A stretch of DNA of 12,718 bases. It comes from a virus. Lineage: Duplodnaviria > Heunggongvirae > Uroviricota > Caudoviricetes. Position numbers and translations under genes: made by a program. Below the pieces are notes generated by a model. It searched no databases. It was not told where the DNA came from and saw only the letters and a list, made by a program, of their open reading frames with translations. This document shows positions 2,630 through 8,319 of this stretch, piece by piece. The DNA is taken from IMG/VR virus record IMGVR_UViG_3300029577_000207. One strand, given 5' to 3'. Every line of letters starts with the position of its first letter. The first letter of the stretch is position 1.

Positions 2630-2785
2630 TTACTCCTCAGGTTCGTAAGCTGTGAAGACAGCGACCTCCGTCTGGCCGGTTCGGATTCGTACCTCGCAGA
2701 GGTCTTTCCTCGTTACCAGTGCCGTCACTATGACGGTTAAACAGATGACGATCAGGGCGATTAACATCGCCTTTTGCTGCTTCAT
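2630..2785 (-). CDS. hokD: Hok-family type I toxin (51 aa), HokD/RelF-like
   Basis: Translation MKQQKAMLIALIVICLTVIVTALVTRKDLCEVRIRTGQTEVAVFTAYEPEE matches HokD as I remember it. AAGGAG 9 nt upstream of the ATG at 2785. An in-frame upstream ATG at 2842 gives the 70-codon frame listed in the ORF track (mok-like leader). Confidence 0.85.
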   Translation of the reverse strand: MKQQKAMLIALIVICLTVIVTALVTRKDLCEVRIRTGQTEVAVFTAYEPEE

Positions 2786-2834
2786 AGCCTGCTTCTCCTT
2801 GCCTTTCGGCACGTAAGAGGCTAACCTACATGTG

Positions 2835-2906
2835 TCTAGCATGAAATTGGCCTCAGATTAATGTTAAGCGTCTTGCAGGACGCGTAATGTTAACTGGGGC
2901 TTTTCT
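2835..2906 (+). ncRNA. Putative Sok-like antisense RNA to the hok leader (boundaries approximate)
   Basis: + strand promoter-like TTGCCT (2799-2804), 17-nt spacer, TAACCT (2822-2827), antisense to the hok leader and mok-like start; small hairpin 2868-2883 and a T-rich run at 2900-2908. Inferred from hok/sok architecture, not from a recognised sequence. Confidence 0.3.
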
Positions 2907-2960
2907 CTATCTGCCGTTGGTGTTCATGCCCGAGGCAGATAGCCTCAAGCACCCGCAGCC

Positions 2961-2989
2961 ATTCTACTTAACTACCGTTACCTCGCCAA
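2961..2989 (-). promoter_or_regulatory. Candidate sigma70 promoter of the hokD mRNA
   Basis: On the - strand: TTGGCG (2989-2984), 17-nt spacer, TAGAAT (2966-2961). Predicts a leader of about 170 nt before the hok ATG, as in hok-family mRNAs. Confidence 0.45.
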
Positions 2990-3467
2990 TATGAAATCAG
3001 TCAGAAAGGCGATCCATAAGAACAATAGCAAGACAATAAATCGCCATTACAGCCGTAATAGCCAGCGCACATTTGAGAACCAGCACCACAACCTCCTGTA
3101 TTGGACGTACACCAGTCCTGATGAATATGAGGCTGTCTCGTCAGTGATTCAATACAACTATTGGGTATAGTTTCTCTGATTTTTTCTGTGGAAATGGGGC
3201 TCAACCACTAGTCACCACCTGCACTTCTTTTAATACGCAAAGTCCGACACAAGCTAACCTTTTAGTCCGCTTTGAGCGAACAACGGAAGTTCGGAATAAA
3301 TACTGACATAGACGTGTTTTCTTGCGGTGGCCAGTTTTTGTTGACCACTTCATTGTACCTAATCTTGGAGGTTGATCAGTTAACCCTCATTATTGCGGGT
3401 TAACTGAAGTTAGGCTTACTGTGTATAGATAAAACAAGCGTTTTTCCAAGTTACCTTAGAAAAAGCC

Positions 3468-4400
3468 TTAAGTTAGAAGCCGTTCCTCGTAATCGTCGGT
3501 TGTGGGCATTTTTCCGATCTCTGTCATGCGACACACTAATCGGGATAAAAGCACTCGTACCTCAATTATATGCTCAACTAAAAAGTTATCTGACGTAGCT
3601 CCCCCATGCACTGCCTTCGAACGGTAGTCATACAGCTTCTTAACCCTACGATAGGTGGCTAAACGATCAGGCCCTCGCTCCTCAAGATATGCTGCGGCCA
3701 TAAGAGCAAGACGAAAACGAAGCTCTGAATTGATTCCAAAGAGCGCTTCAAATCCTGCCCATAAAGCAGCAGCAGCCATTCTCAAATTCGCGTGTTGGTT
3801 GTGAGTAGTTAAAGAATCAATAGCGAGCCGGAATGCTGGTTGCTCTAGCAGATCTATCCAACGCTTGAGATTCTCTTGAACCCAGTCGAGAGACTCTACT
3901 GATATCTCTACACTTGGGCTTATTCTCCGAACTGCCGGCACGTCCTCAAGAAGTTGGACTTCACACGAGTTGGCTTGAAGAGCAGGGAATACATCCCAAG
4001 ATGCACTTGCTACTGCAGGAACAAGTATATCGGTGAGTGTGCGGCATCGGATCGCGGATATGATCCACCATCCGATAGTCAGGTCTGATTGAGAAAATTT
4101 CGACTCACTGCTTTGCAACGCAAGCTCATGCGTAACTGCGGGCATATGACGAGCAACAGCGCTGAGTAGCGACTTGCTCTTAAGCGCTTTGGCTAACTCT
4201 ATCTCTCCTGGTGGATGAAGTACCTCCCTTAATTCACCTACGTCTTGGAAAACATAAGGCCCGTTTCGAAACGTCAATCCTGACAAAGCGAAACAGATCT
4301 CATTCTGACTGGATAAACTAGATATTCGAGTTGCAGCGTATTTCTTGCGAGACTCGAAGTAGTTAAGTAAACCTGACAATTTTTCTTTGTTGATTTCCAT
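3468..4400 (-). CDS. Orphan 310-aa hypothetical protein; candidate HEPN-like effector (C-terminal R-x4-H-G motif)
   Basis: Uninterrupted 933-nt ORF with long non-coding flanks (189 bp upstream, about 620 bp downstream). No family recognised; motif YDYRSKAVHGG at residues about 258-268 (nt 3606-3623), about 50 residues from the C-terminus. Weak Shine-Dalgarno. Confidence 0.7.
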   Translation of the reverse strand: MEINKEKLSGLLNYFESRKKYAATRISSLSSQNEICFALSGLTFRNGPYVFQDVGELREVLHPPGEIELAKALKSKSLLSAVARHMPAVTHELALQSSESKFSQSDLTIGWWIISAIRCRTLTDILVPAVASASWDVFPALQANSCEVQLLEDVPAVRRISPSVEISVESLDWVQENLKRWIDLLEQPAFRLAIDSLTTHNQHANLRMAAAALWAGFEALFGINSELRFRLALMAAAYLEERGPDRLATYRRVKKLYDYRSKAVHGGATSDNFLVEHIIEVRVLLSRLVCRMTEIGKMPTTDDYEERLLT

Positions 4401-4422
4401 ATTCCCAAGCTTAGAATTTTCG

Positions 4423-4450
4423 CTATTGTGTACCGTATATTACACAATAG
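4423..4450. promoter_or_regulatory. Perfect 10-bp inverted repeat (candidate operator or RNA hairpin) upstream of the 310-aa gene
   Basis: CTATTGTGTA-ccgtatat-TACACAATAG, 23-50 nt upstream of the ATG at 4400, flanked by AGCTTAG direct repeats. Confidence 0.5.
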
Positions 4451-4589
4451 CTTAGTTAGGGCGTAGGCGTCCGCTTTTGGCACAAAGCGGACAACCACGC
4501 CAGATCTACCCTGTGCCATGAAAAATGAGAATGTCAATTCACTCCTGAACTAATGCTTTTTAATCTAGTAACGTCTAAAATACCTAACA

Positions 4590-4991
4590 TTATCCCTGAT
4601 AAAATGCCAGTATGCGCTGCATAACTTCACTCATCCGGCACTCGCGACAGATTATGTTTAGGCGACTGTCGTAGCGACGTATTTCTCCATCAGGTAACGA
4701 CCAGATAAGGTCCGGATCAATCACAGCTGTTTTCTTCACCTTTGCCCTCGAGAGTTTTTTGCGGGCGTTTTGCCAGTCCTTACGCGCCTGTTCAGACGGG
4801 AATAACCCGTAACCAGAGCTGTATACATCGCCACTGGCAACCAGCTCTCTGGCCAGAACGCTCATCAGATATCTTGTTGCCCCAGTTTTAGCTTCCAGTT
4901 GTCGTAATGTCTCGCGCCCACTCTGGCGTACGAGTTCCACCACCTGCCCTTTAATTTTTTCCCGCTCTTCTTGTGTAAAAACTTTTGCCAC
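4590..4991 (-). CDS. Small (133 aa) protein with a predicted N-terminal winged-helix DNA-binding domain
   Basis: GTG start at 4991 with GGAGGA immediately upstream, 40 nt after the O-like stop. N-terminal region QVVELVRQSGRETLRQLEAKTGATRYLMSVLARELVASGDV has the pattern of PapI/FaeA-like winged-helix regulators (pattern-level similarity only). Confidence 0.65.
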   Translation of the reverse strand: MAKVFTQEEREKIKGQVVELVRQSGRETLRQLEAKTGATRYLMSVLARELVASGDVYSSGYGLFPSEQARKDWQNARKKLSRAKVKKTAVIDPDLIWSLPDGEIRRYDSRLNIICRECRMSEVMQRILAFYQG

Positions 4992-5031
4992 AAGTCCTCC
5001 TGAACATTACTTTATGCCCTAAAATCAACAC

Positions 5032-5997
5032 TTATCCCCTGAAACCAGGCGGAATTTCTGTATCCGGTTCAGAAATATGATTCACACAACGCTGTACAGG
5101 TGAACGTCCCAGGCGGATGACCAGTTCGTCCCATTTTTTGCGGAGTTTTGACGGGCTCATGATGTTTTTTACCCAGAATTGATCTCGCTGTACCCGACCA
5201 AACATTTCGCAAATTTGTCTGTGGCTTCTGCCATCCAGCATCCGCATTGTGCGCACGTCATTGGCCCAGGCTGTCCAGTTAGGCTCTTTTGGTCGCATGA
5301 TCTCTCCATCGTCGCTGGCAGCCTGTTCGTAAAGGTTCACGATCCGCCCCCAAATCCACTGCGCACACGCCAAATCCTCCCTGCTACCCCACTGGCGTTT
5401 TTTCGCACTAAACACAACCGCGTCGGGGTTCCGGGTTAAAAAATCCTGTTCAGCCGTCTGCGGGTCCGGTTGCGAAGCTTCCGGACGAAAAGTGTTTTTA
5501 TTCTCTGTAGTAATCTCTGTTGTATTCTCTGTAAGATCATCAGGCCATTTTGACCCGATGACATTGGGTCGTTTTGAACCAATGGAGCGTTTCATTTTGA
5601 CCTCTTCCATCGTGTCATTTTGACCTGATGGAGCGGCGCATTTTGAACTGATGGATTCGCTCAATTTGCCACCATCTAAAAGCTCGCTCCCGTAGTTGAT
5701 CGTGTAGAAATTGGTCATGTCGCGCTTTGATTTATTGAGCTTTTCGCAACGTAAAAGCCCCAGCGTTTTCAGACTTGCAAACGCGCGCTTTAACGTTGAC
5801 TCTGACCAGAACGGGAACTGTTCCAGCCATTGTTCCGTTGTGTTGTAAATCCAGCGAACACCATCACATTCCATGCCGGAATTGGTATCTCTCAACCAGT
5901 AATGCAACTGCTGCAACACAATGGCTTCGTTTAAGCCAATCTTCATCGCAAGCTGTGTGTTTATAACCAGTGGGCGTTCAGCAAAAAGAAGGCTCAT
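5032..5997 (-). CDS. Phage replication initiator (lambda O-like replisome organiser) containing the origin iterons
   Basis: N-terminal winged-helix region typical of O/DnaD-like initiators (...LNEAIVLQQLHYWL...WSESTLKRAFASLKTLGLL...), five direct repeats inside the coding sequence, and position after the cro/cII-like genes. First ATG at 5997; the track start at 6051 is TTG. Confidence 0.7.
   Translation of the reverse strand: MSLLFAERPLVINTQLAMKIGLNEAIVLQQLHYWLRDTNSGMECDGVRWIYNTTEQWLEQFPFWSESTLKRAFASLKTLGLLRCEKLNKSKRDMTNFYTINYGSELLDGGKLSESISSKCAAPSGQNDTMEEVKMKRSIGSKRPNVIGSKWPDDLTENTTEITTENKNTFRPEASQPDPQTAEQDFLTRNPDAVVFSAKKRQWGSREDLACAQWIWGRIVNLYEQAASDDGEIMRPKEPNWTAWANDVRTMRMLDGRSHRQICEMFGRVQRDQFWVKNIMSPSKLRKKWDELVIRLGRSPVQRCVNHISEPDTEIPPGFRG
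5546..5654. repeat. Replication origin iterons: five direct repeats of about 23 bp, consensus CATTTTGA(C/A)C..ATGG
   Basis: Repeat units begin at about 5546, 5570, 5593, 5616 and 5639 with a regular 23-24 bp period. Adjacent 5483-5540 is AT-rich with three TCTCTGT repeats that encode a T-T-E-rich linker in the O-like protein. Confidence 0.8.
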
Positions 5998-8261: not shown

Positions 8262-8319
8262 TTTCTGGTGACGTTTGGCGGTATCAGTTTTACTCCGTGA
8301 CTGCTCTGCCGCCCTTTTT
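8262..8319 (+). ncRNA. dicF: DicF small RNA (53 nt plus U-tail), ftsZ-targeting sRNA of the dicB operon
   Basis: TTTCTGGTGACGTTTGGCGGTATCAGTTTTACTCCGTGACTGCTCTGCCGCCC followed by TTTTT matches the DicF sequence as I remember it; located between ydfC and dicB. Confidence 0.85.

Follow-up and report, generated by a model that had tools for sequence, protein, structure and literature searches.

A prophage-borne 310-residue protein with a predicted ApeA-like HEPN core is a candidate stand-alone anti-phage ribonuclease

The viral DNA record IMGVR_UViG_3300029577_000207 (Caudoviricetes; 12,718 nucleotides (nt), the whole of which is referred to as the window) contains, at 3468–4400 on the minus strand, a gene of 310 amino acids (aa) with an ATG start, the end coordinate of which takes in the stop codon. 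We consider that this gene probably encodes a stand-alone anti-phage HEPN ribonuclease (RNase) that acts by abortive infection and is carried as prophage cargo. The 145-residue C-terminal domain of the protein is, with high confidence, a HEPN domain, and its nearest detectable relative at the level of sequence profiles is the HEPN domain of the defence protein ApeA, a distant one. The host element is a Qin-like prophage integrated beside rspB, whose cro-like, ydaT, O-like and DUF977 genes lie on the minus strand as well.

An AlphaFold2 (AF2) model calculated with an alignment (pLDDT 91.3, pTM 0.89) divides the protein into an alpha/beta N-terminal domain and an all-helical C-terminal domain. 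The latter (residues 166–310; 3471–3905, minus strand) has an ApeA-like core from which the ApeA insertion is missing, and bears the predicted catalytic motif R260-S-K-A-V-H265-G266 (R-x4-H; 3603–3623, minus strand, the reverse complement of which reads CGT TCG AAG GCA GTG CAT GGG). The motif belongs to the stretch YDYRSKAVHGG (Y257 to H265-G-G, encoded at ~3600–3632), which the original prediction, made from the letters of the window alone, had placed near the C-terminus behind a predicted helix; in the model, R260–H265 do lie at the C-terminal end of a helix (244–265) and are followed by a long helix (271–295). The same residues stand out in alignments of the family. Among 42 homologues with 41–88% identity (alignment A1), R260, S261, V264, H265 and G266 are invariant (RSxxVHG), and in a set of 46 sequences with 22–35% identity (alignment A4) R260 is the sole invariant column, with H265, G266, W214, E218 and Y257 at least 90% conserved. 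The protein thus presents the features by which HEPN domains are recognized: a conserved R-x4-6-H with a polar residue after the arginine (R260-S261-x3-H265), a core built as an up-down bundle of four helices, the third of which carries the motif, and, as detailed below, similarity to an established HEPN family at the level of sequence profiles.

The top match of the A4 profile among 177,635 PDB sequences is Thr1ApeA (9hxl_A; E = 8.6e-4), aligned motif on motif with WaGiEALf over WAAIEALL and lYdlRskaVHG over LYRQRNIVLHG. The R260/H265 motif corresponds to ApeA R502-N-x-I-V-H507-x-G509, while the first-core-helix motif W214-A-G-F-E218 (3747–3761, minus strand), which is common to ApeA (LWIALESL), brings W214 and E218 onto the invariant ApeA residues W367 and E371. 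Starting from truncated ApeA sequences published with the ApeA preprint, 120 full-length relatives were collected, 31 of which were aligned, and the collinear two-segment alignment with the family profile recurs in 115 of these 120 proteins. When limited to the C-terminal domain and the ApeA HEPN region, hhalign returned a probability of 73% (P = 3.1e-5) and a score of 37.4, a value reached by 0 of 200 column-shuffled templates (mean 13.5, standard deviation 2.7, maximum 27.1) and compared with 16.4 for the reversed template. The greedy hhalign alignment is collinear across the entire domain, ApeA having an insertion of ~57 residues that is absent here. Together with the conservation of R260, this profile link supports the reading of the R-x4-H motif as HEPN-like put forward in the original prediction; of its accompanying comparison to RnlA/LsoA-type toxins, the HEPN part stands, and the protein does resemble RnlA and LsoA in having a C-terminal HEPN-type RNase domain, a multi-domain architecture and a prophage or plasmid origin, but the closest relative is ApeA and not RnlA/LsoA.

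It could be argued that the resemblance is superficial and that the C-terminal domain is a non-catalytic helical bundle, used for ligand binding or as a scaffold, in which the R-x4-H residues are structural. That R260 alone is invariant at the superfamily level, with H265 and G266 next, and that two separate motifs are collinear with the catalytic core of ApeA, well above shuffled controls, makes this highly improbable. Foldseek comparison of the model with PDB and BFVD gave no significant match, and a confident non-HEPN fold, the outcome that the original prediction had named as contradicting it, did not emerge from profile or structure searches.

The link to ApeA is one of catalytic core rather than of architecture. 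Common to both proteins are W-x3-E in the first core helix, [LI]Y-x2-R-[NS]-x2-[IV]H-x-G in the third and a long fourth helix, and both are encoded by single genes without a partner on mobile elements. Unlike ApeA, which is 536–605 aa long and combines helical N-terminal and Mid domains of ~330 aa with a HEPN domain carrying long insertions, the 310-aa protein is half that length, has an unrelated alpha/beta N-terminal domain of ~165 aa and contains no HEPN insertion. The ApeA family models (PADLOC ApeA and Pfam HEPN_Apea) do not match it, which is a weak negative: in a calibration, the ApeA-family proteins P0293, P0319 and P0341 (Thr1ApeA included) had no Pfam match at E ≤ 1, and P0293, which is 99% identical to Ec2ApeA, matched the PADLOC ApeA model at only 2e-12, with Thr1ApeA not matching it at all. 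Since studied ApeA proteins largely escape the same models, the silence of Pfam and PADLOC on the 310-aa protein carries little weight, and current models therefore under-detect ApeA itself. The protein is placed outside the ApeA family, since it has neither the architecture of an ApeA nor a match to the family models; it represents a family of its own, in which the catalytic core is ApeA-like.

The N-terminal domain (residues 1–165; 3906–4400, minus strand), as delimited by AF2 secondary structure and alignment A1, contains P64, E66, E68, E92, W111, R118, P128, W135, E152, D153 and P155 as residues invariant among close homologues, with PPGExE, E92 and LLEDxP as the invariant stretches. Sequence searches of Pfam, NCBIfam, PADLOC and PDB yielded no relatives of this domain, and hhalign did not match it to the N-terminal or Mid domains of ApeA. 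By analogy to other HEPN defence proteins, we infer that it may be a sensor or regulatory domain. Some members of the family (P0264, P0266, P0267, P0250 and P0257) lack residues 1–100 or have another N-terminus; in addition, several of the ~160-aa matches P0205–P0212, P0244, P0245 and P0256 span the N-terminal half only or the C-terminal half only, and these short matches may be pieces of metagenomic sequence or versions of the protein divided over two genes.

The gene had been described as a clean 310-aa open reading frame (ORF) and as an orphan without a family. The ORF is borne out by its ATG start, by purifying selection (dN/dS 0.12 in comparison with L026, a homologue that is 88% identical) and by 220 close homologues from Enterobacter, Kosakonia, Pseudomonas, Burkholderia, Planctomycetota and Acidobacteriota. 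The orphan label is wrong, as the gene codes for a conserved protein: among 1.84 billion cluster representatives, its profile recovers 3,694 clusters at E ≤ 1e-3, of which 687 remain at E ≤ 1e-10. The protein matches PHROG 28161 (function unknown; E = 1e-179) and is identical to RefSeq WP_042058399.1, named ‘HEPN domain-containing protein’ by PGAP. That exact accession is listed as a ‘Predicted novel defense gene’ among 3,000 E. coli strains in Table S10 of the DefensePredictor study (Science 2026, PMC13092281), with a mean log-odds of 9.43 (standard deviation 1.39, range 8.09–11.94) relative to a strict cut-off of 4; HHblits ties it only weakly to PD-T7-4/DUF4145 (q_cov 0.29, probability 63.8). 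It does not appear in Table S6 of that study, which gives the transcription units picked for testing (PMC13092281), and no main-text mention of the accession was found in the literature. Carriage is rare in E. coli, the gene being found in 27 of 5,426 complete genomes as a 1.23-kb segment of 99–100% identity; a plasmid search produced one weak match only.

Genomic position also points to defence. The gene occupies a variable slot (2955–4468 in the window) between the DUF977 gene, which is the last of the replication module (4590–4991, minus strand) and forms the upstream border, and the hokD/sok type I toxin-antitoxin (TA) locus (2630–2954, minus strand), which forms the downstream one; beside hokD, Rfam identifies the sok antitoxin RNA at 2780–2954 on the minus strand (115 bits). 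Otherwise collinear Qin-like prophages (L016, L018–L023) carry other cargo in this slot: KwaA and KwaB (PADLOC E = 1e-101 and 1e-159) plus QueH in L022, a dCTP deaminase (PADLOC E = 7e-128) plus a hypothetical gene in L019, the SMEK protein WP_000566847.1 plus a methyltransferase in L020, a RelA/SpoT-domain protein (defence candidate PDC-S33) in L018, a DUF4209 protein (defence candidate PDC-S39) in L016 and a Sll1717-family P-loop ATPase in L021. DS-27, a system validated in the DefensePredictor study, has this SMEK protein as its cluster representative; four other slot occupants have no entry among the rows listed from the tables of that study. In K-12, the cargo is relBE, and the gene order hokD-relE-relB-ydfV-flxA-ydfW-ydfX-dicC agrees with what the original prediction stated for Qin, namely relBE, ydfV and flxA between hokD and dicC. 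A listing of the wider spread adds an NgoMIV restriction-modification pair, Doc toxins, ImmA/IrrE and others, for which exact placement in the slot is not established. The occupants, from Kiwa, dCTP deaminase, SMEK/DS-27 and relBE to the RelA/SpoT, DUF4209 and P-loop ATPase proteins, bear out the expectation that variable early-region slots of this kind often hold anti-phage or toxin genes, and the survey of related prophages that had been proposed along with it shows, on gene content, the DUF977–hokD interval to be a defence hotspot. No description of it as such was found in the literature.

Outside this slot, the same prophage has a DicF small RNA at 8263–8314 on the plus strand (Rfam, 77 bits), upstream of dicB, as expected in a Qin-type prophage. 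In the genomic copy L001, an IS421 transposase gene lies between tRNA-Arg and tRNA-Ile genes (3617–5218 of that locus, beyond the window) and tolA-like fragments are close to the lysis module; the insertion and the fragments suggest that the prophage is partly decayed.

Qin-like prophages are not the only home of the gene. In addition to these (L001), the E. coli contexts inspected comprise an island with a frameshifted integrase (L002) and the paoD/IS1 locus (L003), where P2-like tail remnants are close by. Six IMG/VR viral contigs contain the gene: in three P2-like ones it sits between the tail-fibre assembly gene G and the tail sheath gene FI, and in two Pseudomonas-type ones it adjoins an integrase at the contig end. 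In P2 itself, the G/FI position holds fun(Z), which is annotated as blocking growth of T5, and the Z/fun locus of P2 has been cited as a defence locus (PMC13586616). The gene is therefore found in defence hotspots of two kinds, the Qin-like slot and the P2 fun(Z) slot, as befits a member of the defence class. Some homologues in other phyla adjoin the PADLOC candidates FRG/PDC-S15 and DUF4917/PDC-S21, and no neighbour gene is conserved across homologues in 8 other contexts. In one metagenome contig and one Planctomycetota locus (L012 4289–6850 and L011 4609–6856), tightly spaced, unannotated genes on the same strand flank the homologue (227 and 295 aa, or 83 and 265 aa, with no Pfam or PADLOC match); they could be operon partners in those lineages.

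An alternative role, as a phage-serving protein, has to be weighed against this distribution. The HEPN RNase would then take part in housekeeping RNA processing, or would aid its own prophage in counter-defence, for instance as a degrader of cyclic oligonucleotides; some HEPN proteins indeed process rRNA or deplete cyclic oligoadenylate signals, and the position of the gene, early-right in strand and immediately past the replication module, would allow read-through from pR because the hairpin that precedes the cargo (see below) has no T-run. The identical cassette, however, is also carried as cargo by islands that are not phages and by the late region of P2, a distribution that speaks against its being built into the programme of any one phage; moreover, the alternative occupants of the slot are defence systems, and the gene is rare and exchangeable in the way that accessory immunity cargo should be. 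We therefore regard a phage-serving role as unlikely and an anti-phage one as the better account of where the gene is found.

The mobile unit can be delimited closely. A single-gene cassette of 1.23 kb (3265–4492, minus strand) recurs at 99–100% nucleotide identity in Qin-like prophages, in the G/FI slot of P2-like prophages and at two further loci in E. coli. Its DUF977 side ends in a hairpin, HP (GTCCGCTTTTGGCACAAAGCGGAC, 9-bp arms; 4469–4492), the last backbone sequence ahead of variable cargo, and a degenerate copy of HP (GTCCGCTTTGAGCGAAC on the plus strand; 3265–3281) lies at its hokD-side junction. In five of six alternative-cargo prophages, homology on the DUF977 side breaks off at 4468–4470; in the remaining one it does so at 4478. 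The hairpin is accordingly assigned to the backbone and not to the cargo. The hokD-side cargo end is (N)GCTCAAAGCGGAC in four backbones; HP and its degenerate copy therefore bracket the cargo with direct CAAA(A)GCGGAC repeats. An integron cassette is excluded on reading of the sequence, as no R''/R' attC core sites fit the cassette boundaries, and the family named ‘Integron cassette HEPN’ is a different, small one.

The junction is not peculiar to this prophage. The 16-mer TGTGCCAAAAGCGGAC stands directly ahead of variable DNA in P2 (after gene G; L030 336–359), in a P2-like contig and in other islands, with further junction loci, besides the window and P2, in L016, L018, L025, L002, L003 and L017, and the HP hairpin is present in 2,666 of 5,426 E. 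coli genomes (about half), at one to six copies each. GenBank records AJ512677 and AJ512681 (‘proviral Z-region’ of P2-EC31 and P2-EC48) annotate an element ending in HP as ‘left inverted repeat’, so that the junction element was already known for P2; judging by their reference lists, these records presumably go back to Nilsson et al. 2004. Leaving aside that 2004 paper on the P2 Z-region, no description of the element at the lambdoid slot was found in the literature. The cassette thus shares with the P2 fun(Z) locus its exact position, in P2-like contigs, as well as HP as the end of the ‘left inverted repeat’, and differs from it in that here the same element bounds the DUF977–hokD slot of a lambdoid, Qin-like prophage. 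HP may accordingly be a docking site for the exchange of cargo between phage families. In the E. coli island L002 (295–8228), which ends in the frameshifted integrase, four HP copies in a single orientation set apart groups of small genes (GNATs, DUF8087, DUF4160 and the HEPN gene), a layout that looks like a cassette array.

The flanks of the gene are much as originally described. Upstream, 189 bp (4401–4589) separate it from the DUF977 stop at 4590 and contain the perfect palindrome that had been reported there, GCTATTGTGTA-N8-TACACAATAGC, with 11-bp arms (4422–4451, 22–51 nt upstream of the ATG); by our own estimate, chance alone would yield ~0.02 inverted repeats of this quality (perfect, 11 bp, spacer ≤40 nt) in the 1.76-kb region scanned. 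The palindrome, which moves with the cassette and is degraded in the 88% variant L026, is possibly an operator or promoter region. Its spacing, on reading of the sequence, does not fit a LexA or CRP box, and an operator for the prophage repressor is dismissed on a spacing misfit and on the half-site not being repeated at the immunity region. Downstream, the ORF-poor stretch put at about 620 bp measures 625 bp to the end of the hok/mok ORF (2842), part of it being sok RNA and ~510 bp beyond that unannotated. Right behind the stop codon is a terminator-like hairpin followed by GUUUUAUCU (3427–3468, minus strand), which a consensus terminator scan did not call. A 214-nt stretch comprising the stop codon and the 3' non-coding tail (3262–3475, minus strand) is predicted to form four hairpins (z = −3.9 versus shuffled controls).

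These flanks bear on another possibility, that the gene is an addiction or toxin module in which an HEPN RNase toxin, checked in cis by an RNA antitoxin encoded in the flanks or by a small peptide, stabilizes the prophage or island. HEPN toxins of TA systems do exist (HepT/MntA) and AbiF has an RNA antitoxin, the neighbouring hokD/sok and, in K-12, relBE are TA loci, and the 3' tail of the cassette folds unusually well. All E. coli copies share this tail at 99% identity, but the 88% variant and the Enterobacter and Pseudomonas homologues have not conserved it, which, together with the degraded palindrome of the 88% variant, argues against an essential RNA partner in cis; a TRF search for a type III RNA-antitoxin array over 2840–4600 detected no tandem repeats. 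Candidate ORFs for a small partner, 3201–3353 (minus strand) and 3272–3403 (plus strand), overrun the cassette boundary or lack support. Homologues have neither a conserved neighbour gene nor an MNT partner, and a 310-aa protein with an extra domain of 165 residues is closer to sensor-effector fusions than to minimal toxins. A toxin module is consequently an improbable explanation, in particular of the HepT/MntA type: the 310-aa gene has no adjacent MNT nucleotidyltransferase or other conserved partner, its cassette being a single gene, and, relative to HepT/MntA, the protein is about twice as long and shows no sequence-level match.

An abortive-infection RNase is in keeping with what is known of single-protein HEPN systems. 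ApeA (Gao_Ape), one such abortive-infection system, with structures for Ec1–4ApeA and Thr1ApeA, cuts tRNA anticodon loops and assembles HEPN dimers into doughnut-shaped decamers or dodecamers; Ec2ApeA is activated by 5'-phosphorylated deoxydinucleotides bound in a pocket between its N-terminal and HEPN domains, and loses defence upon mutation R502A or R521A (bioRxiv 10.64898/2026.01.26.701840). DARNA (PD-T7-3) is a single-protein HEPN tRNase switched on by ssDNA (single-stranded DNA) that is presented by the phage's ssDNA-binding protein (SSB) (bioRxiv 10.64898/2026.02.22.705581). DARNA, PD-T4-2, Tha, DS-11 and AbiD/F/J fuse an HEPN RNase to a non-catalytic sensing domain, a logic that the 310-aa protein would share, and are, like it, borne by prophages or other mobile elements; they act by abortive infection through cleavage of tRNA or mRNA. 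They differ from it in domain order and partner domains, and none of their PADLOC models matches it; identity with DARNA in particular is rejected because the HEPN domain of DARNA is N-terminal (R117-x4-H122).

By analogy to ApeA, DARNA and other single-protein HEPN defences, the 310-aa protein would be made in the lysogen and held inactive as an HEPN dimer or higher oligomer. A cue from an infecting phage would be sensed through the family-specific N-terminal domain or through a pocket between it and the HEPN domain, upon which the composite R260/H265 site would cut RNA, most likely the anticodon loops of tRNAs, so that translation would halt and the infection be aborted. Both tRNA as the target and the N-terminal domain as the sensor are suggested by analogy only.

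Several observations weigh against this proposal. Its trigger, RNA target and oligomeric state are modelled purely on the systems just described. The A1 profile, built on close homologues, has no match in PDB, and whole-length hhalign against ApeA gives an E-value of about 1e-3 and a probability of only 17–22%; scans of Pfam, NCBIfam and PADLOC leave both the 310-aa protein and 88 family members without a match. No consensus sigma-70 promoter was found on the strand of the gene, so that expression in the lysogen is an assumption, and the gene occurs in 0 of 50,697 sequenced phage genomes. Finally, the literature yielded no experiments on WP_042058399.1 or any member of its family, and 45% of the tested DefensePredictor predictions were validated overall, a rate that climbs with log-odds (PMC13092281). 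Taken with the HEPN core, the hotspot residence and the published prediction, these points leave a stand-alone anti-phage RNase as the probable function of the gene.

If this function is confirmed, the HEPN immune repertoire would gain a nuclease that is compact (310 aa), very widespread and encoded by one gene, with a putative sensing domain of an uncharacterized kind. How infection is sensed is the question posed by this class; for ApeA and DARNA it was resolved only in 2026. We tentatively suggest a broader reading, in which the family may constitute a new, widespread class of single-protein immune RNases (spanning Enterobacteria to Planctomycetota in no fewer than 3,694 clusters at 50% identity) that places a minimal ApeA-type HEPN core under an undescribed alpha/beta sensor, responds to a cue other than the deoxydinucleotides of ApeA or the SSB-bound ssDNA of DARNA, and travels as a cassette between P2-like and lambdoid prophages via the TGTGCCAAAAGCGGAC hairpin, which would then serve unrelated phage families as a common docking site for the exchange of defence cargo. 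To a specialist, the HEPN label, present in RefSeq, and the defence prediction, a published table entry, will come as no surprise; potential novelty lies in the putative N-terminal sensor domain and in the shared junction hairpin. According to a 2026 survey of P2/P4 hotspots, the swapping of defence genes is still to be elucidated. A single junction hairpin bounds cargo in both the P2 fun(Z) slot and the early-region slot of lambdoid prophages, and thereby offers a concrete handle on the exchange of defence genes between phage families.

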